Assembly: GCA_964404565.1 (NCBI GenBank)
Contig: CAYOKK010000001.1
Span: 5,674 to 53,661 of the forward strand
Length of the DNA stretch: 47,988 bases
Reading direction: 5' to 3'
From: an uncultured Candidatus Saccharibacteria bacterium
GTDB taxonomy: Bacteria > Patescibacteriota > Minisyncoccia > Phycocordibacterales > Phycocordibacteraceae
Shown here: positions 645 through 23,818 of the stretch, piece after piece
How the letters are laid out: every line of letters begins with the position of its first letter
Position numbering within the stretch: position 1 is the stretch's first letter
Notes under the pieces: generated by a model
Databases searched by the model: none
What the model was told of the DNA's origin: nothing
What the model saw: the letters and a program-made list of their open reading frames with translations, nothing else
Translations under genes and position numbers: made by a program

Positions 645-704
645 ATGGCCTCACATGCAATACTAGAGCGTGTGCATTGTTCTTTGAACAAGAGAGGATC
701 AGAA

Positions 705-1355
705 ATGAATCACTGCATCGTACACCATGGCCTCGTCGGCTGCTCGCTTGCAGTAATGCAAGAAGCATATCTCTCGACGTTCTTGCAATTCGCGAACGAT
801 CCGAGAGTGGTCGAAGGAGTCCGCCTGACACCGCCGGTCGGCATGCCGGAAGAGCTTGATTGGCTTCAAAGACTATCGAAAAGGAAGGGTACTGACCACG
901 TCTTTGCCGTACTCCGTCATGACGGCGAAGTCAGTTCTCCGAGATACATCTACATCGGCCATACGGGTGTCCACGGTATTCTTTGGCCGAATGCTACCGG
1001 AGTGACCGGCTCATTACTGGGCGACCTCGAGAATCTAGGCAAAGGACACGGAACAGAGGCAAAGCTCTTGCTTCAGTACCACGCTTTCCGCATTCTCGGA
1101 CTACGCAAGCTTACCTCAGGCGTGAAGTCGTTCAATGCCCGCAGCCTGGGTCATCTCATAAAATGCGGGTATCGCATCGTCGGCCGTTACAAAGAACATG
1201 AATTCCATAATGGCGGATACGTCGATGAGATTCTGCTCGAGTGCTTCCGCGAAGATTGGGAGCCCGTTTGGGAGCAGTATCAAGCTACCAGGGAGCTGCC
1301 GAAGCTCACGGATGCGCAGCGCGATCTCGTCTGCAAAGAAACCGGACAGGAATAA
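705..1355 (+). CDS. GNAT family N-acetyltransferase (RimJ/RimL-like)
   Basis: Family-typical N-terminus ...FANDPRVVEGV... and a GNAT core (GKGHGTEA). The ATG at 705 follows GAGAGGA. The track ORF starts at 645, directly after the hairpin. Confidence 0.8.
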   Translation: MNHCIVHHGLVGCSLAVMQEAYLSTFLQFANDPRVVEGVRLTPPVGMPEELDWLQRLSKRKGTDHVFAVLRHDGEVSSPRYIYIGHTGVHGILWPNATGVTGSLLGDLENLGKGHGTEAKLLLQYHAFRILGLRKLTSGVKSFNARSLGHLIKCGYRIVGRYKEHEFHNGGYVDEILLECFREDWEPVWEQYQATRELPKLTDAQRDLVCKETGQE

Positions 1356-7255: not shown

Positions 7256-8149
7256 TTACAGCACAGATACGAGCATAATGCCAATAACAATGACTACGCT
7301 CGCGGCGAGCTGTACGGAAGTTGTCCGTTCTTTAAGGAATACCCGCGCAAGTACGATTGTCGGCAGCGAGAAGGCTCCTGAGAGGAGCGCCACCACGCTC
7401 GTGAGCGTAGTGGCGCCGTACCCCCAGCTGATAGCCAGATATGCACCCATTTCCGTCGCTCCAATAAGGATAAGATACTTCCATATTTCCGGCTTCTCCA
7501 CCTGTAGCCGTATCTTACGGAGCCATGCAAAGCACAAGAGCGCGAGCGTCATGAATACGTACATGAGCATCGAGTAGGTAAGCCAATCTTTCCCGCTTAC
7601 GAATTCGTTCCACCCTAAAGTCCATACAGCAGCAAGCACGGCAGCAAGAGCTACTTGCCGGAATCCTGGAACACGCACGAAGCTCAACCTCCGCATGCGC
7701 AACGCGGCGAAATCAACATTGAGAAGAAATATGCCGATGAAGATAACGACCAGCGCCATGACTAGCTGGCCGCTTAGGACTTCGCCCAGGAACAGCGTTG
7801 AGAATAGTGCGACGAGACCTGAGTATGAGGCAAAGAACGGGTTCAGGATGGCTACCTGCCCTTTCCCGAAGCCGATATATACCAATAAATAAACGATTCC
7901 CTGAAGGAGGCCGAAGAACGCTAGACCGGCCCACACTCCCGCATCTTTCGGTAACAGGAACACATGCCCTCCGATAAGCGCTATGAGAACGACTGCCGCG
8001 ATGGCTAATGTTCCGAATATATGCGCTATGACGAGCGTAACAATATCTCCTATCTCATCTATGGTCTTCTTGGCGAAAAGGTCGGCAAGTCCCCAGCCGA
8101 GCATGCCACCGAGGCCGGTGAGTACGGCGATAAGTAGTTCTTGTTGCAT
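7256..8149 (-). CDS. EamA/DMT family transporter
   Basis: 297 aa with about 10 TM helices in two similar halves, typical of the DMT superfamily. Confidence 0.75.
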   Translation of the reverse strand: MQQELLIAVLTGLGGMLGWGLADLFAKKTIDEIGDIVTLVIAHIFGTLAIAAVVLIALIGGHVFLLPKDAGVWAGLAFFGLLQGIVYLLVYIGFGKGQVAILNPFFASYSGLVALFSTLFLGEVLSGQLVMALVVIFIGIFLLNVDFAALRMRRLSFVRVPGFRQVALAAVLAAVWTLGWNEFVSGKDWLTYSMLMYVFMTLALLCFAWLRKIRLQVEKPEIWKYLILIGATEMGAYLAISWGYGATTLTSVVALLSGAFSLPTIVLARVFLKERTTSVQLAASVVIVIGIMLVSVL

Positions 8150-8294
8150 GAAATCAGTATAGCAGTTGAAATGAATGCTCTAAGAGTCACGTTAACAAGA
8201 CATAGTGAGACTCGAGAGCGTTAGTCGGCTCATCGGGATGAGCATTTCAAGATTACGCGACGCTAAACGCAGGAACTGAACCCTGCTAACCTTT

Positions 8295-8822
8295 TTACAA
8301 CAGAATGTAATATCTCAAAGTATTAATCGGACTTCCGCGTTTAATGCGAGATGCTTTTATGACTGCCTCTTCGTTAAAACCGTTCGCCTCAAGCGCTTTT
8401 GCAATTCCCAGATTATCAGCTTCAAACTCCGCAACGATCCTCCTGAGTCCCATAGCATCTTTTGCATACGCGAGAATCGCTCTGATAGATTCTGATGCGA
8501 TTCCCTTTCCCCAATAGTCCTTTTCTCCAATTACGATACTTAACTCGGCAACTCCGTGATGGGCATTGATCTCGTGAAGTGAGATCGTGCCGATAAGTGT
8601 TGAGGTCTCTGTGTATACAATTGACCAGTACGCCGCATCATCTTCCATTAAACACTCCTCAAGGTAACGCTCCTGCTCTTCAACCGTCGTCGGCTCATTC
8701 AGTGGTTCGGGAAGATACTCCTGCACATCAGGGTCAGTATCCCATTTCTGCCACGATTCTATGTCAGCCAGTTCGTTTGGGCGTAACGTAAGTCGTTCAG
8801 TATGAAGAGTTTCTACTTTCAT
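8295..8822 (-). CDS. GNAT family N-acetyltransferase (RimJ/RimL-like)
   Basis: TERLTLRP...D...W..DPDV N-terminus and the acetyl-CoA loop WGKGIASE. Confidence 0.85.
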   Translation of the reverse strand: MKVETLHTERLTLRPNELADIESWQKWDTDPDVQEYLPEPLNEPTTVEEQERYLEECLMEDDAAYWSIVYTETSTLIGTISLHEINAHHGVAELSIVIGEKDYWGKGIASESIRAILAYAKDAMGLRRIVAEFEADNLGIAKALEANGFNEEAVIKASRIKRGSPINTLRYYILL

Positions 8823-8859
8823 TTTTCTAGGTAGGATTCTTTAAAAAAGATTAATAGTT

Positions 8860-8890
8860 GAGGCCGCTATCTAGATAAGATAGCGGCCTC
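8860..8890 (-). terminator. Hairpin terminator after small peptide gene B
   Basis: GAGGCCGCTATCT-AGATA-AGATAGCGGCCTC (13-bp stem). A T-rich tract follows on the minus strand. Confidence 0.65.
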
Positions 8891-8902
8891 GCTCTTCAGT
8901 GG

Positions 8903-8995
8903 TCAGGGAGCGGGGTAGCAACCGCCGGCTTGGTCTCCGCCGCAATTGCCATCGCTATCACCGCCATTACCGCCGCTGGATACGAACTTCAGCAT
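8903..8995 (-). CDS. Small Gly/Asp/Cys-rich peptide B (30 aa): MLKFVSSGGNGGDSDGNCGGDQAGGCYPAP; not on the ORF track
   Basis: GGAGGAG lies 6 nt upstream of the ATG. It has its own TTGACA-17-AATAAT promoter and its own terminator hairpin, and a paralogue sits at 11218-11304. Confidence 0.6.
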   Translation of the reverse strand: MLKFVSSGGNGGDSDGNCGGDQAGGCYPAP

Positions 8996-9059
8996 CGTAA
9001 CTCCTCCTTCCTAGACTTCTCACCGAGCGTCTATTGCACAGCAAGGTTATCCAGTTCTA

Positions 9060-9088
9060 ATTATTGAGGAAAATTGCAATACTGTCAA
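9060..9088 (-). promoter_or_regulatory. Sigma70-like promoter for peptide B (TTGACA-17 nt-AATAAT)
   Basis: -35 at 9088-9083 and -10 at 9065-9060 (minus strand). It lies in the gap after the S9 peptidase stop. Confidence 0.45.
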
Positions 9089-9114
9089 AAATCGTCTAAT
9101 TTACTGAGCAAAAC

Positions 9115-10914
9115 TCAGTCGTTAAATATTTTTTCTAAGAATGCCACTATCTTTGGATATGCATCAAGACGATTCTTGAGCTTAGCAAGACCATGACCTT
9201 CATCAGGATAAATAAGGAGTTCAACTTCCCTGTCGCGCCTCTTAAGTTCTTCTACTATTTGTTTGGCCTCTGAAAGAGGCACCCTCGGATCATTAGCGCC
9301 ATGAACGACTATAAGCGGCGCTATTATATTCTCGACCGAGTTGATTGGAGAGATTTGCTCAAGCAATTCTCTATCATTCTCTAAAGATCCATACTCTGCC
9401 TCACGAATGCTTCGTCGGTATGGAGCAGTGTTCTCGAGAAACGTAACGAAGTTTGCTATACCGACCACATCCACACCCCCAGCCCAGAGCTCTGGATAGA
9501 ATGCAAGTCCTGCGAGTACCATGAATCCACCGTAGCTCCCTCCTGAAAGGACCACTTTCGTACTATCGAACTCTGGAACGGCCCGTATATGACCATGAAG
9601 TGCGACGAGGTCCTTTACAGAATCCATGCGCTTCTCGACGTTATCCAGGGTAAGGTAGGTCTTACCGTACCCAGAGCTCCCGCGCACATTCGGTGCAATG
9701 ACCACATAGCCGTTATAGACAAAATACTGCGTCAGTCGGATGAGGGCTGGTCGGTACTGGGATTCGGGACCGCCGTGTATATCGATAATTACGGGCAGTT
9801 TCTTGTTGATGCCAATATTTTTAGGCTTATATACAAATGCCGGGACAGAAAGTCCATCAAATGAGGTAAAGCGTATCAATTCCGGTTCTACCAGGTCATC
9901 AGAACGGACAGCTTGATAGCTGTGAGTAAGCTGGCGTGAAGTGTGAGATTCGATATTGTACAACCAAATATCTTGTGTGCGAGTTGAGTCCGTGAAAGTA
10001 AATACAAGTCTTTTTCCATCGTTTGAGAAACGTAGCGCTTGTACGAGACCTTTTGTTGGCAGCGCTAATGGCAATTCCGTGAGCGTGTTCGTATCATACA
10101 TACGAACTCTGTCATATCCGTCCTCGTTTATGGTTAGTACGAGATATTTCCCTTCACCATCTATCGCCAAACCGTCAATGTCCCATTCAGGCGTGAGGAC
10201 ATACGCAAAGGACTTTTCCGCCAGATCATACCTTGCCAATCCCATAAACTCCCGTTCACGGTCCATAGGTACAAAGAAGGCCGATTCGTCGGGAAGCCAG
10301 CGAGGAGTACCATGAGTTTCCTCCTTCTCGTGTGGAGTGATGCACTCAATAGCGCCTGTTAGCAAGTTGCAGAGATACAAATCACTATGTACTAGCGAAT
10401 GTTGTTTGGACATAATAAGATACGTATTTTCTGGGGAAAAGGAAGCTGCCACCATTGTTCCTCCCCCATCGTATACGCATCGTCTTTCCTTTGTCTCGAT
10501 TTCCATTACATATATATCGAAGTCCTTTCCGTTGCGTTCGTTCGAACGGAATGCAATATATTTCCCGTCATTAGACCAAGCTCCGAAGTTATATCGATAC
10601 TCAGGATTATCGGTCAGTGGAATTATTTCATTTGTCGATGGAGTAATGAAGAATAGCTGTGAATTCTCATTACCACCTATCGACATCTCGAAGATAATGA
10701 GTTCTTTGGTAGGAGAAAAGATAACGCGGGACACCGAATCGTCATACTGCGTAAGTTGCGTAGACACACCGTTCTCAATATCCAAAAGATATACCTGCGA
10801 AGTGCCCGTATCATTATTTAGATAGCAAATTTGCTTTCCGTCTGGACTAAAGGAAGCGGCTCCAGCGGCTTTAGCTTCAAGGAAATCATTAATACTGTAT
10901 TTTTTAGACTCCAT
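9115..10914 (-). CDS. S9 family serine peptidase (prolyl oligopeptidase / acylaminoacyl-peptidase type) with N-terminal beta-propeller
   Basis: Catalytic Ser in GGSYGG, Asp in HGANDPRV and His in DEGHG. The N-terminal approximately 350 aa are propeller-like. The ATG at 10914 is preceded by an in-frame GTG at 10917. Confidence 0.9.
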   Translation of the reverse strand: MESKKYSINDFLEAKAAGAASFSPDGKQICYLNNDTGTSQVYLLDIENGVSTQLTQYDDSVSRVIFSPTKELIIFEMSIGGNENSQLFFITPSTNEIIPLTDNPEYRYNFGAWSNDGKYIAFRSNERNGKDFDIYVMEIETKERRCVYDGGGTMVAASFSPENTYLIMSKQHSLVHSDLYLCNLLTGAIECITPHEKEETHGTPRWLPDESAFFVPMDREREFMGLARYDLAEKSFAYVLTPEWDIDGLAIDGEGKYLVLTINEDGYDRVRMYDTNTLTELPLALPTKGLVQALRFSNDGKRLVFTFTDSTRTQDIWLYNIESHTSRQLTHSYQAVRSDDLVEPELIRFTSFDGLSVPAFVYKPKNIGINKKLPVIIDIHGGPESQYRPALIRLTQYFVYNGYVVIAPNVRGSSGYGKTYLTLDNVEKRMDSVKDLVALHGHIRAVPEFDSTKVVLSGGSYGGFMVLAGLAFYPELWAGGVDVVGIANFVTFLENTAPYRRSIREAEYGSLENDRELLEQISPINSVENIIAPLIVVHGANDPRVPLSEAKQIVEELKRRDREVELLIYPDEGHGLAKLKNRLDAYPKIVAFLEKIFND

Positions 10915-10960
10915 CACGCAATTATACTAAATCTTATATCAGTATTGAATTAAAAGAAGT

Positions 10961-10986
10961 TGAGCCGAGAACTTAATCTCGGCTCA
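10961..10986 (-). terminator. Hairpin plus T-tract between peptide A and the S9 promoter
   Basis: TGAGCCGAGA-ACTTAA-TCTCGGCTCA, followed on the minus strand by CTTCTTTTAATTC. Confidence 0.5.
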
Positions 10987-11178
10987 GGTCTAGCTCCTGC
11001 CACGGAGCGATAAGATCATCGTATTGGTTCTCTGGCATAACCTCTACAAACTCGCCTTGCGGTGTAAGAGTTGTGTGATTGCTGGAGACCAGCTTATGCG
11101 CACGAATCTCGGGAGAAGAAAGTCGGTTTCGAGACACAATTCAATTCCCTTGTCCGATGTTGGAGTGGTTCTTGATTT

Positions 11179-11207
11179 GGAGCTGCCATCTAGACGATGG
11201 CAGCTCC
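11179..11207 (-). terminator. Hairpin directly after small peptide gene A
   Basis: GGAGCTGCCATC-TAGAC-GATGGCAGCTCC (12-bp perfect stem), 11 nt after the stop. No clear T-tract. Confidence 0.45.
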
Positions 11208-11217
11208 CGATCGAGGA

Positions 11218-11304
11218 TCAGTGACCGCAGGCAATGCCGTCGCCACCGTCACCACAGCCGCCGTCGCCATCGCAACCGCCGCCGCCACGATTGAACATGG
11301 TCAT
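11218..11304 (-). CDS. Small Gly/Asp/Cys-rich peptide A (28 aa): MTMFNRGGGGCDGDGGCGDGGDGIACGH; not on the ORF track
   Basis: AAAGGAG lies 9 nt upstream of the ATG. It has its own TTGACA-17-TATCAT promoter and a downstream hairpin. It resembles peptide B in composition and length. Confidence 0.6.
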   Translation of the reverse strand: MTMFNRGGGGCDGDGGCGDGGDGIACGH

Positions 11305-11367
11305 TGTCAAGTACTCCTTTCTGGTTCTTTCTGTCAGAGTGATTTCCTCCAGGGAACTCCGTGAAGA

Positions 11368-11401
11368 ATGATAGAGGAAGTAAGGTTACTTGTCAAGTAA
11401 C
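11368..11401 (-). promoter_or_regulatory. Promoter for peptide A with a perfect 8-1-8 palindrome over the -35 box
   Basis: -35 TTGACA at 11396-11391 and -10 TATCAT at 11373-11368. The palindrome GTTACTTG-N-CAAGTAAC spans 11385-11401. Confidence 0.45.
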
Positions 11402-11423
11402 GCTTTAATGAGCTACATACTCC

Positions 11424-13217
11424 CTATTCATACAACCCGATATGCAGCTCATACAGCTTCCGATACTCACCATTCGGAATCTTCATGAGCTCGCCGTGGC
11501 TGCCCCGCTCCGCTATCTTCCCGTCCTTCAGGAAGAGGATGGTGTCTGCCTTGCGGACGGTCGAGAGGCGGTGCGCGATGATGAACGTGGTGCGTCCTTT
11601 CATCAGCTTCTCGAGAGATTCCGTGATAAGCCGTTCTGTCCGAGAATCGAGCGCGCTCGTCGGCTCGTCGAGGATGAGGATCTCGGGATCGCGCAGCACC
11701 GCGCGGGCGATTGCGACCCGCTGCTTCTGCCCCACGGAGAGCTTCACGCCGCGCTCGCCGACCAGCGTGTCATATCCCTTCTCAAGCCCTGTTATGTAGT
11801 CATGGATATGCGCCTGACGTGCAGCCTCTTCGACCGCCGTATCGGACGCGTCGAAGGTACCGTACCGAATATTCATGCGAACCGTGTCGTTGAAGAGCGC
11901 GACCTCCTGCGGGACGACGGCGATGCGCGAGCGCAGGTCTACGAGATCCCATCTGCGCGTGTCCACGCCATCGACAGAGACCGAACCATCCGAGGGGAAA
12001 TAGTAGCCGGAAAGAAGCGAGATCATGGTGGATTTTCCGGCACCGGATTCGCCCACGAGCGCGACGACCTCCCCAGGTCGCGTCTGGAAATCGACACCAT
12101 GCAGCACGCCTGTAGCATCGTCCTTGTAGGCGAACGAGACGTCGGAAAATTGTACGGTTCCGTCTGAGCGTTCGGGAGCCTGGGCGTTTTCGGGACGGTA
12201 CGTCTCTTCGGGGATGCGGAAGATTCCTTCTAGATGCGCTGCGGAGGTGAGGCCGTTCTGTATGGTCTGCCAGCTGAAGCCGAGCGCGACGAACGGTCCG
12301 AAGAACATGAGCGCATACCCGTTGAGCGCGACGAGCTCGCCGACAGTGAGAACGCTGCCCGCCACGTACTGGACCGAGATCACGAAAATGGCGAGCTGCG
12401 TCAGGAAGACGATGAGGCGCTGGTAGAAGCTGACGTCGCTCCAGGTACGCTCGAGCTTCATCCAGAGCTCGTACACCTTCCCCATGAAGGTTGTATCGTT
12501 CTTTTTCCTCTCATACTCCTCCGCGGCAGCCTGCTTCACGGACGTCACCTGGTGCACCGCTTCCGCAGCATCGCTCCAGCTCTCCTGCCAGAGCTTGCGC
12601 GCTTCGTTATCCTTCTTAGCCACAGGAATGAGGAGCGGTATGAGCGTGGCGACATATACCAGGACGCCCAGGGCGAGCACGCCGGCGAGGAGCGTGTTGA
12701 TGCTGAGCGCAAGCACGATGCCGATGATGACCGAGAGGAACTGCGGCGTGAGGTTTATGACATTCTGCACGATCATGGATATCTGCCATGACGCGTTACT
12801 TACCTTGTTGAGCTCGCCATTCACGTGCGCATCCGTGTGGTACGAGAGCGGGAGCCGGAGGAAATGATTGAAGCCGCTGGTCTCGACATTGAATTGTATC
12901 TTTGTGTCGAGCATTCGGCGCATGCGGTCCTTCACCCAGTCCGTGCCGTTCGCTACGACCTGGATGAGCGCCCAGGCGGCGAGCAGGATTCCCCAGAGCG
13001 GGAGGCCGGATGCGCTGGCGGGCGTTCCTGCGGATATGCCGATGAGCGCGTCGAAGAAACGGCCGGTCACGTAGGGAACGAGACCGTTCGCGACGGCGGA
13101 TATAAGCCCGAGGATGATGAGCCATACGAGCAGTGCCTTGTGCGGAAGCACGTGCCGCCATACGCCCTGAACGCCTTCCTTGAAGGGTGCTTTCTCTTGT
13201 TCTGGCTCTTCTTGCAT
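11424..13217 (-). CDS. ABC transporter, fused permease/ATPase (type I exporter, MsbA-like half transporter)
   Basis: Six N-terminal TM helices; Walker A GESGAGKST; signature LSVGQKQRVAIARA; Walker B ILILDEPTSALD. No C39 peptidase domain. Confidence 0.9.
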   Translation of the reverse strand: MQEEPEQEKAPFKEGVQGVWRHVLPHKALLVWLIILGLISAVANGLVPYVTGRFFDALIGISAGTPASASGLPLWGILLAAWALIQVVANGTDWVKDRMRRMLDTKIQFNVETSGFNHFLRLPLSYHTDAHVNGELNKVSNASWQISMIVQNVINLTPQFLSVIIGIVLALSINTLLAGVLALGVLVYVATLIPLLIPVAKKDNEARKLWQESWSDAAEAVHQVTSVKQAAAEEYERKKNDTTFMGKVYELWMKLERTWSDVSFYQRLIVFLTQLAIFVISVQYVAGSVLTVGELVALNGYALMFFGPFVALGFSWQTIQNGLTSAAHLEGIFRIPEETYRPENAQAPERSDGTVQFSDVSFAYKDDATGVLHGVDFQTRPGEVVALVGESGAGKSTMISLLSGYYFPSDGSVSVDGVDTRRWDLVDLRSRIAVVPQEVALFNDTVRMNIRYGTFDASDTAVEEAARQAHIHDYITGLEKGYDTLVGERGVKLSVGQKQRVAIARAVLRDPEILILDEPTSALDSRTERLITESLEKLMKGRTTFIIAHRLSTVRKADTILFLKDGKIAERGSHGELMKIPNGEYRKLYELHIGLYE

Positions 13218-13282
13218 AAGACCATTCTACCCCTTCTCCTGTGCACGTACGAATCGCGCGCATCTGGTAGAGTACCTATTAT

Positions 13283-13831
13283 ATGGACCTCGAAGAGCTC
13301 GCCGGGATAGAGCCGGAATCGCCGGAAACGGAACATGCCGTCTATGAGCTCTTCAAGTGGAGCGTCATCCTGAAAGGACTCATCTCGCTTGCCGAGGTGC
13401 TTGCGGCGCTCGTGCTCATCCTCGTGCCGGAGCGGTACGTTATCGCGCTCACGCAAGCCGCTGCTGAATGGATTTCCGCACACGCGGGTACTGCGCCCTT
13501 GGCCGGGCATATCGTGGAAGAGCTCGCCGCCTTCGGCGGCGGCGCGGTGCTCTTCGTCGCCTTCTTCCTCTTTTCGCGCGGGCTTATCAAGTGCGTCCTT
13601 ATTTGGGCGCTCTTGCGCAATATTCTCTGGGCGTATCCTGCCTCGCTCGGGGTCATGGGCGCGCTCGTGCTGTATCAGCTCTACGAGACTTTCCTTACCG
13701 GCTCGGTTTTCATCATTGGCATCACGCTCTTCGACCTGGTCGTCATCTATTTCATATGGCGCGAGTGGCGCATCGTGCTGCGCCATGTAAGAGACAGCGC
13801 ACGAAGCGCGCGGGATACGCGCGCTTCGTAA
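13283..13831 (+). CDS. DUF2127-like membrane protein
   Basis: YELFKWSVILKGLISLAEVL and four hydrophobic helices. It is divergent from the ABC gene. Confidence 0.65.
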   Translation: MDLEELAGIEPESPETEHAVYELFKWSVILKGLISLAEVLAALVLILVPERYVIALTQAAAEWISAHAGTAPLAGHIVEELAAFGGGAVLFVAFFLFSRGLIKCVLIWALLRNILWAYPASLGVMGALVLYQLYETFLTGSVFIIGITLFDLVVIYFIWREWRIVLRHVRDSARSARDTRAS

Positions 13832-13834
13832 GGA

Positions 13835-16492
13835 TCAGGATCCTTGCCCTCGCGTATCGTCATTCTGACGCCGTGCGCCGATGAAGAAGAGGAGCGCGAA
13901 CAGCAGCAGCGCGATGCCGAGAAGGAACGGCCAGGAACGTGCGAGCAGCCCTGCGGCTGCGGCCTGATTCCCTGCTCCTGCTGCGTGGGCGACCGCGATG
14001 CCCGGGAACACCTTAGTCAGAAGACTGTCGCTGTCTCCCTTGGTATCCGTGCCGTCGGCATCCGATGAATCGCCTGACTCAACGCTCATCATGCTGCCAA
14101 GCACCTCACCCGCCTGTCTTGCGAGCGACTCTTCCGGTGCGACCAGCACGAGCGTTCCGTTGCCGGCGAATGTCTCGAGCCGTTCTCCTTGTTCGGAATA
14201 TACGACGGTCGAGAGCGTGTAGGTGCCGCGCGGCGCTCCTTCGCTGAACGACGTATCGTAGCCGAGCGCTACGCCGGCGCCGGCCGGAATGGCGCCTACG
14301 TTCCAGACCTCTTCGTGAATCACGGTGCCGTCAGGAGCGGAAAGCACGTCGTGGATAGCTACGGGCGCGGATGCTGCGTCGCGGTCGTTAAGGACCGTAA
14401 GGTTCTGATGTACTACCGCGGCCCCGTCGGACGTTGCTGACGCTGGGGAGCGCGTCACTGAAAGTGATGAGAAATCAGCGGCACCTGTATCTGCAGCAGG
14501 GGCCGTTTCCTGTACCTCTTCAGGCTCATCCCTCCGCTGATGGTGTGACGGGTGAGGAATGGAGATGGTAGCGGTGTCCGTATCGTCGGCACGGTTCGCA
14601 TCGGTCTCATGCCTGGTCGCGGTGACGGTATTCGTGATGTCCGTGCCCGGCGGCGCGTCATAGATCGTGCCTTCGTAGGTAACCTCTACCGCGCCGCCGG
14701 CCGGAATGGTACCGAGTTCCCACACGGCGTTTCCATCCTCATCGGCCGCATACGGGGATGAAGAGTCGCCCATGCGTATGTGGTCTTGCGCATACTCATC
14801 GGTAAGCGTGACGTCCGTCGCAGGCGAATCCCCGTTGTTTATGACCGTATAGGTGTACGTAACCCTGTCGCCGTTGCCGACGTCGCTCGGCACGGAGACC
14901 TGTTCCCCGACCCACAGGTCAGGCCGGCCGAACGCGATATTCCCGTTGAAGTCGCCGAAGATGTTGATGATGGCCATGATCCAGTTCTTGCCGACGATGT
15001 TCGTGTTCGCGATATTCATCACGTTCGCGCTCGCAAGCGCGTTTCCCGTCGTAATGAGGGCGGAGTGCGCGTTGTTCACCCTGTTCTGTCCGGTTAGTGC
15101 GAGAACATCGACGTGATTGCCGATGTTTGCCGTCGAGGACGCCGTTACCTGCGCCATGCTCTGCGTACCGCTTCCCGTGCCGCCGCTTGCGTCGAAGAGC
15201 GCGATCGTCCCATCCGGGCCCTGCGTCCACTGCAGGCCTTCGGGCGCGCCGAAGACCTCGCCAGCCCAGTCGCCCTGCACGCGGAAAAGGATGGAGACAG
15301 CCATCCCGCCCAGCATATCGGTGTTGATCTGATTGAAGACGCTGCCGCTAGAGGCGCTTCCGCCAGTCTGTATGGTGCTGGACGCGGTATTGCTCGTCTC
15401 GTTTCCTCCGGATTCTGCATTCGCATTCACGTCGTTCTCGACGTTCGCCGTGCTGTTGATCGTAAAGACGCCAGGCGCAAGGTTGCTTGCCAGAGAAGCG
15501 AGGAAGTTGGCGAGGCTCGGAAAGACGATATCGCCGTCCACGCCCTGGAAGGCGTTCATGGTGACGAGCAGGTAGTTTGAGTCGATGATATTCGTGTTTG
15601 CAAGGTTGATGAGATTGAGGCCCGCATAGGCGTCGCCCGTGGCGATCACTGCATCGTCAGCGTTCTCGATCTCGTTTCCTCCTGAGGTCGCATTCAGCAC
15701 GACGGCGTTCTGGATGTTCCCTTCGCTCTCTAGGTTCACGGACACGCCGTCGGTACCCGCGCAGGCGAAGAGCGCGCACATGGCGCTCGAGGTCGATATG
15801 CCGCCGAGCGCGCGCAGGTCGATCGTACCCGTCACCGGGTCGATGTAGTTGAGCATGAGCGCGTTCCCGCTCGAATTCACCAGGTTGGTATTGATGATAT
15901 TGAGGATGTTGGCAAGCGCGACGGCCGTACCGGACTCGATAGTCGGGCCGGTACTGGTCGCAGCTGCGCTCGTGGAAGTTGCCGACGTAGACGACGCTGC
16001 CGGCTCATCCGGTTCGGCAGGAGCAGCCGGAGCATCTGACGTACTAGACGCCGCGGCATCATCCGCCACGGCCGTGCTGCTCGTAGCCTGTGTCGAGGTG
16101 CCCGTCAGCTCTATGTCAGGCAGCGATGAGGAATTCGACGCAGATGTAGATACGGTATCTATAGATTCCGACGTGCTGCCAGTCACGTCTTCGTTCGCCA
16201 TGTTCATATTTGCTTCTGCCGCATCGCCTCCTCCTGTTTCGCTTTCTTCCATAGAAGTATCCGTATCTTGGCCGCCTTCGTCAGCGCCGTCCTCATCTGA
16301 GTCCACAGTGTCTTGAACGGTATCCGGCGCAGCTTCATCCTCAGCAGTCTCATCCGCAGTACCGGTCGAGACGGTAGCTGGTGAATCTACGGTCTCCGCA
16401 TGCACGAAGCGGATGCCAGAGAGCGCCATGGGCTCCAAGAGGAGTACGCCCGTAAGCGCGATGGCGAAAATATTTTTAAGGAACGTATTCAT
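13835..16492 (-). CDS. Large secreted, C-terminally anchored surface protein with 3.5 copies of an Asn/Gly/Thr-rich repeat module and DUF11/CARDB-like domains
   Basis: Signal peptide MNTFLKNIFAIALTGVLLLEP...; an acidic/Ser-Thr linker; repeats at residues approximately 185-521. DUF11-like sequences VTYTYTVINNGDSPATDVTLTD are present, plus a C-terminal TM helix with a basic tail. Confidence 0.8.
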   Translation of the reverse strand: MNTFLKNIFAIALTGVLLLEPMALSGIRFVHAETVDSPATVSTGTADETAEDEAAPDTVQDTVDSDEDGADEGGQDTDTSMEESETGGGDAAEANMNMANEDVTGSTSESIDTVSTSASNSSSLPDIELTGTSTQATSSTAVADDAAASSTSDAPAAPAEPDEPAASSTSATSTSAAATSTGPTIESGTAVALANILNIINTNLVNSSGNALMLNYIDPVTGTIDLRALGGISTSSAMCALFACAGTDGVSVNLESEGNIQNAVVLNATSGGNEIENADDAVIATGDAYAGLNLINLANTNIIDSNYLLVTMNAFQGVDGDIVFPSLANFLASLASNLAPGVFTINSTANVENDVNANAESGGNETSNTASSTIQTGGSASSGSVFNQINTDMLGGMAVSILFRVQGDWAGEVFGAPEGLQWTQGPDGTIALFDASGGTGSGTQSMAQVTASSTANIGNHVDVLALTGQNRVNNAHSALITTGNALASANVMNIANTNIVGKNWIMAIINIFGDFNGNIAFGRPDLWVGEQVSVPSDVGNGDRVTYTYTVINNGDSPATDVTLTDEYAQDHIRMGDSSSPYAADEDGNAVWELGTIPAGGAVEVTYEGTIYDAPPGTDITNTVTATRHETDANRADDTDTATISIPHPSHHQRRDEPEEVQETAPAADTGAADFSSLSVTRSPASATSDGAAVVHQNLTVLNDRDAASAPVAIHDVLSAPDGTVIHEEVWNVGAIPAGAGVALGYDTSFSEGAPRGTYTLSTVVYSEQGERLETFAGNGTLVLVAPEESLARQAGEVLGSMMSVESGDSSDADGTDTKGDSDSLLTKVFPGIAVAHAAGAGNQAAAAGLLARSWPFLLGIALLLFALLFFIGARRQNDDTRGQGS

Positions 16493-18257: not shown

Positions 18258-19148
18258 TCAGAAGACCACGCGTATGATGACCGTTCCCGGCGCGGGCGAG
18301 ATAGTCTGCAGCGGCACTTCGCGCTTCGGCGCGCGCTCTGTCTGTACCGCGCGGTATCGGCGCTTCAGCGCATCTAGGAGATCTTCTCCCTCATCAGCAT
18401 CGAGGTAGGCGACGGTAAAGCCGTTCTCATCGACAGCGCTCGGCGCCGCCTGGATGGAAGCGTGCGAGCGATCCATCATGATCGGCCCTGCTGCGTCCGC
18501 TGCAGTGAGCGAGGAGAGCGATACCAATCTCTTTTGTGCGGTGAGCGCACCCGCATTCGTGAAGCGGGCCGTATCAAAATCGCTGAGCGGAAGGTACCCT
18601 GTATCCCGTTCCGTTATCGCGAACGGCCGCTCGACGATCCACTCGGCCGAATCGTGATGAGAAACGTAGTAGACGTACGTCTCGTACTCTGTGCCTGCCG
18701 TATCGTTCCTGAATATCATATGCCAGAGATTCGGGAGTTCTTCTTGGAGCGCCGCCGACACCCTGTCGCCCGGAGCTATCGCGATAGGCAGCGCGCGCTC
18801 GACGTCAGGAAGCGTTTCGTACCATGCATGATACGTAGTCGTACCATTATTTGTCAGCGCTTGGGTTCCGAGCTGGATAAGGTCCCGCGATCCTGAACCG
18901 CCGATGCCGATCCACACCGCGCTTGCAGAGAGAGTGCCCTCGGGTGTCGAGGTGGGTACGGTCCAGCTGCCGTGCACGCCTGTATACGCGCCTTCGTCAG
19001 CGACGTATCCGGCCCAGTTATGAGAGAAATGGATGCGCGAGGCTTCTGGGAGCGGGATCTTCTCTGCGGCGGCGGCATGCGGCACGCCTGTCGCGAACCC
19101 CAAGAAGACGAGCGCGCTAAGTGCGATACAGGAGTACAGAGACTTCAT
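18258..19148 (-). CDS. Peptidase G1 (eqolisin / scytalidoglutamic peptidase, Pfam Peptidase_A4-like), secreted
   Basis: SHNWAGYV, WIGIGG, LIQLGT (catalytic Gln context), YHAWYETLP, AEWIVERP (catalytic Glu context) and FTNA all align by eye with aspergilloglutamic peptidase. A signal peptide is present from the ATG at 19148; the track start at 19169 is TTG. Confidence 0.8.
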   Translation of the reverse strand: MKSLYSCIALSALVFLGFATGVPHAAAAEKIPLPEASRIHFSHNWAGYVADEGAYTGVHGSWTVPTSTPEGTLSASAVWIGIGGSGSRDLIQLGTQALTNNGTTTYHAWYETLPDVERALPIAIAPGDRVSAALQEELPNLWHMIFRNDTAGTEYETYVYYVSHHDSAEWIVERPFAITERDTGYLPLSDFDTARFTNAGALTAQKRLVSLSSLTAADAAGPIMMDRSHASIQAAPSAVDENGFTVAYLDADEGEDLLDALKRRYRAVQTERAPKREVPLQTISPAPGTVIIRVVF

Positions 19149-19202
19149 ATACAGCTGTAAGCATAGCAAAGAAACAAGAACGGCAGATGAAGAAGCGGGC
19201 CC

Positions 19203-22714: not shown

Positions 22715-23818
22715 CTACGGCGCGGCTGCTTCTACAGCCGCAGCGCTCTGCGGAAGGACCGGATCGAGCGCGTGCGTCGCATTGAATGCCAGTACGCTGA
22801 GCGCGAATGCGATGACGATCAAGCCGCCAGAGAGGACTTCCAGGTACCGCACGCGGGCATGCGCAAAGAGCGCGAAGATGAGCAGCACTAGCAAGATGCC
22901 TGCGAGGCCGCCGAGCGCGTAGACGCTCGTATGGAGCGGCGATGCCGCGAGACGCTTGAAGAACTGCAAGGCGGTCGGTTCGCGCGCATACGTCTCGCCG
23001 GTCTGCACGCCGAGCACCGTCGTCGTGCTCACGGTGGAATCTTGTGCAGCATCTGCCGATTCGCCTGCTGAGTCGCTGCTCGCCTCGTCAGAATCAGTTC
23101 TCTCTTGTTCCTGTGCAACCGCGTCCGTTTCTTCCGGGGCAATGGTTTCGGGTTCCGTATCAGCCGTTTCCTTATCACCCGGCACCACCTCCCTCACCGC
23201 TACGGCGATCGGATTCTCTGTACGCGCTTCTTTGGTCACGGTCTGGTCCATGGGTTTTGCCGCGAATTCTTGCACGACGAAAACCGTCTCTTCTCCTTTG
23301 TATATTCCCTTCGCAACCGCATACCCCACGCGCGTATACTGCGGCTTCACGATATTGGCGCGGTGCGTGGGCGAATTCATCCACGCCTCCTCCACTTCCG
23401 AAGAGTCATCGAAGTTTACGGCAAGATTCTCTCCGGCATACGTGTATTCGTATCCTACCTGGTCGAGCCAATACCACGGAGATTTCCCTTCAGGACTCGT
23501 ATGCGCGAAGTATCCCTTCGCCGCCATGTCATTCGCCTTCAGCTGGGCTGCCTTCGCGAGCAGCGGGTCATTCACGAGCGGCGCGACGCCGTTATCTTCC
23601 CGATCGGCATTCGTAAGGCCGAGGAGCGCACCGGGAAGGACGGACGCGAGGAATGATGTGTCATCCTGTGCGATCTCCGTATCGATGACGTATGCGCCTT
23701 CGAAGAGAAGGATAGCGGCGAGGAGCGCAATCACCGCCGTCCGCTTAAAGAGCTTCGGATGGTATCCGTTCCCTGTATGGGGCACGAGAAGATCCTTGAG
23801 CGGTGAACGGGAAGCCAT
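22715..23818 (-). CDS. CAP/SCP (PR-1-like, YkwD-type) domain protein with N-terminal TM and acidic linker
   Basis: LAKAAQLKANDMAAKGYFAHTSPEG...GENLA...AWMNSPTHRANI. Confidence 0.8.
   Translation of the reverse strand: MASRSPLKDLLVPHTGNGYHPKLFKRTAVIALLAAILLFEGAYVIDTEIAQDDTSFLASVLPGALLGLTNADREDNGVAPLVNDPLLAKAAQLKANDMAAKGYFAHTSPEGKSPWYWLDQVGYEYTYAGENLAVNFDDSSEVEEAWMNSPTHRANIVKPQYTRVGYAVAKGIYKGEETVFVVQEFAAKPMDQTVTKEARTENPIAVAVREVVPGDKETADTEPETIAPEETDAVAQEQERTDSDEASSDSAGESADAAQDSTVSTTTVLGVQTGETYAREPTALQFFKRLAASPLHTSVYALGGLAGILLVLLIFALFAHARVRYLEVLSGGLIVIAFALSVLAFNATHALDPVLPQSAAAVEAAAP

Follow-up and report, generated by a model that had tools for sequence, protein, structure and literature searches.

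Gly/Cys-rich microprotein genes adjoining an S9C-like peptidase gene in Saccharibacteria-like Patescibacteria

Do very short open reading frames (ORFs) beside a peptidase gene encode peptides at all, and, if so, do peptides and peptidase belong together? These questions are raised by a stretch of 47,988 nucleotides from an uncultured Candidatus Saccharibacteria bacterium (GenBank assembly GCA_964404565.1, contig CAYOKK010000001.1, positions 5,674 to 53,661 of the forward strand; the whole stretch is hereafter termed the window), in which two mini-ORFs, mini-A and mini-B, lie on either side of a gene for an S9 serine peptidase (S9). An earlier note had regarded the mini-ORFs as peptide genes within a processing locus that also comprised an ABC exporter and a GNAT acetyltransferase. 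By the comparative evidence described below, mini-A and mini-B are real genes under strong purifying selection, and they are members of a hitherto undescribed family of microproteins that, together with a small protein named orf54, is physically coupled to one clade of S9C-like peptidases in Saccharibacteria-like Patescibacteria, this assignment of the clade being the one given to the related metagenome-assembled genome records.

Conservation of the mini-genes and of their place beside S9

Relatives of S9 were collected from GTDB representative genomes, which yielded 24 loci at 33–60% identity, and a protein search then added relatives at 67–80% identity. Homologous mini-ORFs adjoin S9 in the same orientation in five further distinct metagenomic loci (L034, L036, L038, L039, and L040), always beside the closest S9 relatives (72–80% identity). 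Ten units are available for comparison: six of the A type, to which mini-A belongs, three of the B type (window, L034, and L039), located 3′ of S9, and one of the C type (L034). The peptides range from 25 to 35 residues across the family, and those of the related loci are as follows.

L034/L035, A-type, 5′ of S9: MMTLDQRGGCDGDGSCGNGGEGVGCGH
L036, A-type, 5′ of S9: MSKMRNSPGCDGDGGCGNGGEGVGCGH
L038, A-type, 5′ of S9: MLKLVLGGGGGSGCDGDGGCGNGGEGVACGH
L039, A-type, 5′ of S9: MQYMYKMTYGGCDGDGGCGDGGDGVACGH
L040, A-type, 5′ of S9: MTLFIPGGGCDGDGSCGNGGEGVGCGH
L034, B-type, 3′ of S9: MLRFVFGGESDGDGSCGDQAGGCYPAS
L039, B-type, 3′ of S9: MYKLTYNDLNGGGCDGDGSCGSGETGGCYPLPPRH
L034, third copy (C-type): MAMNTGGGDGCHDNGDGGGCIPSAA

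The start codon, the Shine-Dalgarno (SD) sequence, the reading frame, the cysteine positions, and the position of the stop codon of the A-type genes are kept in all six loci. The A-type peptides end in a core of 19 residues, GCDGDG[GS]CG[DN]GG[DE]G[VI][AG]CGH, which is followed directly by the stop codon and conforms to the pattern C-x5-C-x8-C-x-H; the three cysteines and the C-terminal histidine are invariant in 6/6 sequences, each cysteine is flanked by glycine, and the acidic residues are conserved. The N-terminal 6–12 residues are variable, which places selection on the C-terminal core. Over the last 22 codons, the variable columns fall on the first, second, and third codon positions in the ratio 6/4/19, and the mean nonsynonymous and synonymous divergences (dN and dS) calculated by the Nei-Gojobori method are 0.066 and 0.886, respectively, corresponding to a dN/dS of approximately 0.07. 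All three stop codons (TGA, TAA, and TAG) are in use at the identical position. A comparison of the B-type tails of the window and L034 gave a dN of 0.04 and a dS of 1.9, together with an in-frame 3-nt indel. Nucleotide identity of the core is 72–90% in every pair; that of the 5′ untranslated region (UTR), the N-terminal codons, and the 3′ flank is approximately 48%, which is the random level, except between the closest two loci. The proposal of the earlier note that the mini-ORFs are peptide genes is therefore borne out by the conserved frame, cysteines, and stop position and by a substitution pattern characteristic of coding sequence, and the test it had suggested, conservation of frame and cysteines at orthologous S9 loci, gave a positive answer for the closest S9 clade.

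That the mini-ORFs are chance products of GC-rich, low-complexity DNA could be argued from the observations that the GGC-rich stretch is open in all six frames and that the antisense frame sharing the wobble position is nearly as conserved as the sense frame (amino-acid identities of 0.84 and 0.87, respectively). However, the corresponding antisense ORF, which is Pro/Ser-rich (11221–11277, plus strand, WPQPTPSPPLPQ...), was rejected because three loci (L034, L038, and L039) provide no start codon for it, and for the same reason the sense frame is assigned as the gene. Conservation of the SD, start codon, frame, cysteines, and stop position in six loci, combined with the coding substitution pattern, refutes the chance explanation, the probability of which is practically nil. 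The conservation seen in the antisense frame is an artefact able to mislead conservation-based callers of small ORFs.

In a neighbour-joining tree, the S9 genes accompanied by mini-ORFs form one clade, in which mini-A is located directly 5′ of S9 in 6/7 S9 genes of 72–80% identity; L037, which carries no mini-ORFs, is nested inside this clade. No mini-ORFs were found at the sister locus L113 (67%) or the more distant S9 loci inspected, nor at the 24 GTDB loci. The genes lying outside the cassette differ in every readable locus, L040 being too short to include its upstream gene:

Window: ABC ... GNAT
L034: EamA ... 121-aa ORF / SET
L036: 164-aa ORF (opposite strand) ... LeuRS
L038: upstream, DUF2127 (opposite strand)
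L039: GNAT (opposite strand) ... 182-aa ORF (opposite strand)

Among the genes next to the mini-genes of the window, only S9 and orf54 recur in other loci. The latter, which did not appear in the gene list of the earlier note, encodes a protein of 54 aa between mini-A and S9, and its homologues (L034, 766–930; L040, 193–351; L038, 5869–6021) encode 50–54 aa and share the motif RTxLTPxGEF[IV][EQ][IV]. The orf54 gene was found only in mini-ORF/S9 cassettes and in two positions, namely between mini-A and S9 in the window, L034, and L040, and 3′ of S9 with its own promoter in L038. An AlphaFold model of the protein contains a single beta-hairpin at residues 21–33, with low confidence or disorder elsewhere, and neither a candidate in the protein search nor a match in Pfam, NCBIfam, PDB, or PADLOC was obtained for it.

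The mini-peptides likewise have no match in Pfam (even at E<=10), NCBIfam, PDB, or PADLOC. An exhaustive HMMER search with mini-A against 1.84 billion representative proteins, a type of search that is limited for these peptides by the rarity with which ORFs shorter than 30 aa are called, found one true relative, the S9-adjacent 29-aa peptide of L039; a second match was a spurious translation of a tandem repeat. Gene callers missed the mini-genes in the window and in the related loci except L039, where two copies were called. A protein search with the concatenated A and B peptides returned 16 word-sharing candidates, none of which scored, and a literature search with motif strings and for Patescibacteria RiPPs (peptides synthesised on ribosomes and modified post-translationally) returned nothing relevant. 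A degenerate DNA motif scan of viral contigs gave 72 matches, which were rejected as chance occurrences inside larger ORFs or in poly-G or AAT-repeat DNA without a start codon or SD; near-identical stretches in IMG/VR (L042, L068, L092, L110, L054, and L105) that end in ...ECDGDGVCG[ED]H and a stop codon were also discarded as chance or low-complexity sequence, as they lie beside poly-G and AAT repeats and have no start codon or SD. No Rfam match was obtained at E<=1 in 8000–13500, and none at gathering level in the related loci; the sole Rfam match of the window is an ordinary tRNA-Met (335–410), far from the locus. Judged by these searches, the microproteins are a genuinely new small-protein family, in agreement with the view of the earlier note that the locus, if functional, fits no described class.

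Layout, expression signals, and neighbouring genes

The five genes that the earlier note had described as co-directional (ABC, mini-A, S9, mini-B, and GNAT) are all present on the minus strand, and the TTGACA-17 promoter, SD, and hairpin that it had assigned to each mini-ORF are likewise in place. The features, in the direction of transcription, are as follows.

11424–13217, minus: ABC exporter (Pfam ABC_membrane and ABC_tran, without a C39 domain)
11368..11396, minus: mini-A promoter, TTGACA-17-TATCAT, 11/12 consensus match
11218..11304, minus: mini-A gene, A-type, 28 aa, MTMFNRGGGGCDGDGGCGDGGDGIACGH; homologues share frame and stop position
11179–11207, minus: mini-A hairpin, perfect 12 bp, without a U-tract
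10973..11137, minus: orf54, small protein of 54 aa, between mini-A and S9; homologues in L034, L040, and L038
10961..10986, minus: intrinsic terminator of the mini-A/orf54 unit, GAGCCGAGAtTAAnTTCTCGGCTC, with the TAA stop codon of orf54 in its loop
10921–10926, minus: S9 -10 box, TATAAT
9115..10914, minus: S9 serine peptidase (Pfam Peptidase_S9 and PD40 beta-propeller), start codon at 10912–10914
9060..9088, minus: mini-B promoter, TTGACA-17-AATAAT, 11/12 consensus match
8903..8995, minus: mini-B gene, B-type paralogue, 30 aa, with a C-x7-C-YP tail, MLKFVSSGGNGGDSDGNCGGDQAGGCYPAP
8860–8890, minus: mini-B hairpin/terminator, perfect 12 bp
8295–8822, minus: GNAT acetyltransferase (Pfam Acetyltransf_3)

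A composition scan of the whole 48-kb window identified mini-A and mini-B as its only Gly/Cys-rich mini-ORFs. The top two sigma-70 matches in 8000–13500 (11/12 positions) are the sites directly 5′ of these two genes, and promoter-like sites as a whole are not in excess in this region (7 seen vs 5.1 ± 2.4 expected). The mini-A and mini-B units can be aligned over their length and have a common architecture, in which a leader of approximately 55 nt with a consensus SD of the GGAG type, located 7–9 nt 5′ of the ATG (GAAAGGAG, 9 nt 5′ of the ATG, in mini-A; GGAAGGAGGAG in mini-B), precedes the coding sequence. A TTGACA box approximately 90 nt 5′ of the A-type ATG is also found at the same distance in L034, L036, L038, and L039, and TTGACA promoters are present in most of the ten units. 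All ten units, from six loci, contain a GAAAGGAG-like SD and a hairpin of at least 11 bp, which starts 8–13 nt past the stop codon in 8/10 units and approximately 27–31 nt past it in the A-type unit of L036 and the C-type unit of L034. The hairpin sequences differ between units, yet every one is self-complementary, and three compensatory base-pair changes distinguish the mini-A hairpin of the window from that of L034. On these signals, mini-A and mini-B are independently transcribed and translated genes for acidic microproteins of 28 and 30 residues. The mini-A hairpin is probably a leaky terminator or a stabiliser ahead of orf54, and equivalents of the intrinsic terminator of the mini-A/orf54 unit are present in L034, L040, and L038. 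As S9 and mini-B are not separated by a terminator, the hairpin of mini-B is probably the end of the S9 transcript as well.

The S9 protein matches Peptidase_S9 (4.6e-42) at its C-terminal alpha/beta-hydrolase domain and PD40 and other beta-propeller models at its N-terminal part. Among solved structures, its best relative is 5l8s, an aminoacyl/acylaminoacyl peptidase that matches over the full length at E 8e-64, whereas prolyl oligopeptidases (POPs) match at approximately 1e-12 to 1e-18 and in the catalytic domain only. By these matches, S9 is an acylaminoacyl-peptidase-like (S9C) enzyme and not a prolyl-oligopeptidase macrocyclase, so that the analogy with the macrocyclases GmPOPB and PCY1 drawn in the earlier note is not supported; the A-type core, moreover, contains no proline. 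Identity as a lasso isopeptidase was also rejected, the score against NCBIfam lasso_peptidase being 74 bits vs a cut-off of 400. The GGSYGG, ANDPRV, and DEGHG motifs are intact, the first corresponding to a GxSxGG nucleophile elbow, with the Ser-Asp-His triad assigned by motif rather than by structural superposition, and inspection of the N-terminus by eye, without a predictor, revealed no evident signal peptide. A TAnAnT -10 box is located 6 nt 5′ of the start codon in 5/6 loci and 7 nt in L040, and no SD precedes S9 in 6/6 loci; S9 is therefore probably translated from a leaderless mRNA.

The segment of the window that contains S9, mini-B, and GNAT (8100–11100) has a GC content of 41–49% vs 56–63% in the adjoining DNA. 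The low-GC segment starts just past the stop codon of the ABC gene (11424), where homology to close relatives ends, and the intervening DNA is intermediate in GC content. This difference is consistent with block acquisition and suggests that the cassette of the window was acquired horizontally from a lower-GC relative.

The inclusion of the ABC exporter and the GNAT in the peptide system, as put forward in the earlier note, is not upheld by the related loci. The ABC gene adjacent to the cassette in L039 shares only 32% identity with that of the window and is not orthologous, and the adjacent GNAT of L039 is an orthologue of window 645–1355 (45% identity) and not of 8295–8822. No ABC gene lies beside the cassette in L034, L036, or L038, and neither an ABC nor a GNAT is among the genes called there. 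The ABC genes most similar to that of the window are those of L025 (85%) and L026 (81%); in both loci, the stop codon of the ABC gene marks the exact end of homology to the window, and other elements are located 3′ of the gene. No mini-ORFs were found at ABC-anchored metagenome loci. Because orthology fails in L039 and homology stops at the ABC stop codon in L025 and L026, the exporter and the acetyltransferase are, on this comparison, bystanders rather than conserved partners.

Several further observations concern this neighbourhood. In L025 (5284–6957) and L026 (237–1910), DUF2127 is separated from the downstream region by a tandem pair of ABC half-transporter genes; only the second of this pair is retained in the window (13217–13283 region), from which a loss of the first is deduced. 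Each of these loci has, immediately 3′ of the orthologous ABC gene, one tRNA-like element or two (L025, approximately 8836–8930; L026, 3825–3893 and 4087–4156), in which the acceptor stem and the GGTTCGATTCC T-arm are intact and the remainder is degenerate; they score 23 bits against the Rfam tRNA model vs a gathering threshold of 29 bits, are negative in ARAGORN, and have a conserved 5′ TCTTTATCTTTCTCTT...ATTGCTA and a 3′ terminator. These elements could be a tRNA-like small RNA (sRNA) or a decayed tRNA/att site. On the minus strand of the window, the neighbourhood also encodes a large low-complexity DUF11/CLIPPER surface protein (13835–16492), a Peptidase_A4 (eqolisin-type) protein (18258–19169), and a CAP-domain protein (22715–23818); a secreted or surface repertoire of this kind is typical of episymbiotic Patescibacteria.

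What the microproteins and S9 may do together

The reading that we favour, with a confidence a little short of even, is that the peptides are acidic thiol/carboxylate microproteins, probably cation-binding, that are coupled to a cytoplasmic oligopeptidase possibly trimming or degrading them. Because the invariant Cys-x5-Cys-x8-Cys-x-His is embedded in glycine and Asp/Glu/Asn, the Gly-rich core could form a flexible thiol/carboxylate(/imidazole) ligand loop with a role in cation chelation or as a small thiol peptide. The beta-propeller of S9 enzymes restricts entry to peptides of up to roughly 30 residues; the family, at 25–35 residues, matches this gating, which makes S9 a plausible trimming or turnover enzyme. 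Such an S9C-type oligopeptidase would probably remove the variable N-terminus or turn the peptides over, in which case the peptide genes and the peptidase would be one functional cassette moving together. Several points weigh against this reading. Most B- and C-type paralogues keep only two cysteines and have lost the histidine, which weakens the case for a fixed four-ligand (Cys3His) metal site, and the mini-peptides have no Pfam match to any metal- or Ca-binding motif. All members of the family were found via S9 anchoring, so that copies away from S9 may exist, and the association has a single origin on the S9 tree and could therefore be inherited synteny. The peptides are missing beside the S9 gene of L037 and beside all S9 genes of at most 67% identity, which means that S9 does not require them, and S9, mini-A, and mini-B have separate promoters.

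Some of these points are equally the basis of an alternative that appears unlikely but far from negligible, namely that the peptides are autonomous microproteins (e.g., stress proteins, or buffers for metal or redox) functionally untied to S9, their adjacency being gene order inherited in one lineage. It accommodates the single origin of the association, the loss of the peptides with retention of S9 in L037, and the separate promoters and terminators, including the leaderless promoter of S9; furthermore, S9 orthologues are near-universal in Patescibacteria (>7,700 matches at E<=1e-50) and 27 inspected loci have no mini-ORFs. Against this explanation stand the continued pairing of the mini-genes with S9 despite the rearrangement of the outer flanks on both sides in each readable locus, the restriction of two unrelated small-gene families, the Gly/Cys peptides and orf54, to the company of this S9 clade, and the compositional island that the cassette forms in the window. 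A regulatory role in cis, in which the mini-ORFs would be leader peptides that sense the supply of Gly-, Asp-, or Cys-tRNA and attenuate S9, or non-coding sRNAs, is suggested by the position of mini-A 5′ of S9, by the hairpin 8–13 nt past the stop codon in 5/6 A-type loci, and by the Cys-rich (polycysteine) leader ORFs known as attenuators in mycobacteria, but it is very improbable. In all six loci, S9 lacks an SD and has a -10 box of its own 6–7 nt 5′ of the start codon, and read-through transcripts would for that reason translate S9 poorly; an attenuator on whose terminator read-through S9 depends is disfavoured by this sequence-level evidence of a leaderless promoter. In addition, the B-type unit of L039 is followed by a convergent gene, a specific 19-residue sequence rather than mere composition is under purifying selection, the UTRs are unconserved, and the region gave no Rfam match.

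An RiPP-like system, in which the mini-peptides would be short-leader precursors matured by S9 through leader removal or head-to-tail cyclisation, with other modifiers possibly encoded elsewhere and with export of a product that would act as a signal, antimicrobial, or metallophore, is also improbable. The combination of a variable N-terminus and a conserved core, the several paralogous peptide genes around one peptidase, and the U-tract-free hairpin between mini-A and orf54, which resembles the arrangement of structural and accessory genes in operons, would fit such a system, some RiPPs are indeed matured by S9 enzymes, and the CYP-x-P in the B-type tails would suit post-proline cleavage. On the other hand, a Pfam scan of ORFs of at least 150 aa in 645–23818, which reaches approximately 7.5 kb beyond GNAT and 10 kb beyond ABC, found no YcaO, radical-SAM, Lan, MNIO, lasso B/C, or C39 gene, consistent with the earlier note, which had seen no YcaO, radical-SAM, lanthionine, or C39 gene; no RiPP maturase is shared among the related loci. 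S9 is S9C-like rather than POP-like, the conserved part of the peptides is the core and not the leader, no exporter is conserved, and no signal peptide was seen by eye, without a predictor, in the peptides. We infer that the locus is not a canonical RiPP cluster. A minimal peptide pathway, in which short-leader precursors would be matured only by the S9C oligopeptidase (by trimming or cyclisation, perhaps assisted by orf54) into a Cys/Asp/His thiol peptide of approximately 19 residues that serves as a metallophore, a cofactor-like thiol, or a host-interaction signal, must be regarded as quite improbable; if true, it would represent a new RiPP-like class without a classical modifying enzyme.

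The genomes of Patescibacteria are tiny, few specialised-metabolite or signalling systems have been recognised in these bacteria, and standard annotation is blind to their genes of fewer than 30 codons, as illustrated by the omission of a strongly selected and highly expressed-looking family here. Should the peptides prove to bind metal or to undergo processing by S9, the cassette would provide a tractable system, consisting of three parts of 19–54 residues and one enzyme, for the study of microprotein function, thiol and metal handling, and peptide signalling in episymbiotic bacteria.

Comparison with known systems

With POP-dependent RiPPs, represented by the amatoxin enzyme GmPOPB and the orbitide enzyme PCY1, and alongside the class III lanthipeptide leader peptidase FlaP, the locus shares tiny peptide genes (here for 25–35 residues) beside an S9 serine peptidase. 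It differs in that the enzyme is S9C-like and not an S9A prolyl oligopeptidase, that the A-type core runs to the stop codon without proline and without a C-terminal recognition tail, and that a conserved leader or follower recognition sequence is missing, the core being conserved instead; the scanned ORFs contain no other maturase. In the A-type peptides, proline is confined to the variable N-terminal parts of those from L036 and L040, and the B-type peptides have a C-Y-P tail. Microcin B17 and related thiazole/oxazole-modified microcins (TOMMs) are similarly small and Gly/Cys/Ser-rich, but no McbBCD/YcaO cyclodehydratase/dehydrogenase is encoded by the scanned ORFs or in the related loci, the 26-residue leader is missing, the present peptides are Asp-rich and acidic, and the ABC exporter is not conserved. 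The exporter also distinguishes the locus from those of double-glycine-leader bacteriocins, as it has no N-terminal C39 domain and is not conserved beside the peptide. An S9 gene beside a small peptide gene is likewise seen in lasso peptide systems with an Atxe2-type S9 isopeptidase, and the Gly...Asp spacing of the mini-peptides could in principle form a ring; unlike those systems, the locus has no lasso B/C genes among the scanned ORFs, and its S9 falls far below the lasso_peptidase cut-off.

Leader-peptide attenuators resemble the A-type units in that a tiny Cys-containing ORF and a hairpin lie 5′ of a gene. In contrast to them, the mini-genes have their own promoters and terminators and S9 its own leaderless promoter, the B-type unit of L039 is not 5′ of a co-directional gene, and purifying selection is sequence-specific. 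The core itself may be compared with the Excalibur and thrombospondin type-3 Ca-binding repeats, with which it shares an Asp/Gly-rich loop with cysteine; its segment [DE]-G-[IV]-[AG]-C is reminiscent of D-G-x-x-C in DxDxDGxxCE, the Excalibur motif (PMC8391695). The acidic spacing is unlike that of Excalibur, Gly-His stands in place of the terminal Glu, and no Pfam match is obtained at E<=10. Whereas those repeats are domains of extracellular proteins, the mini-A product would be a free-standing cytoplasmic peptide of 28 residues.

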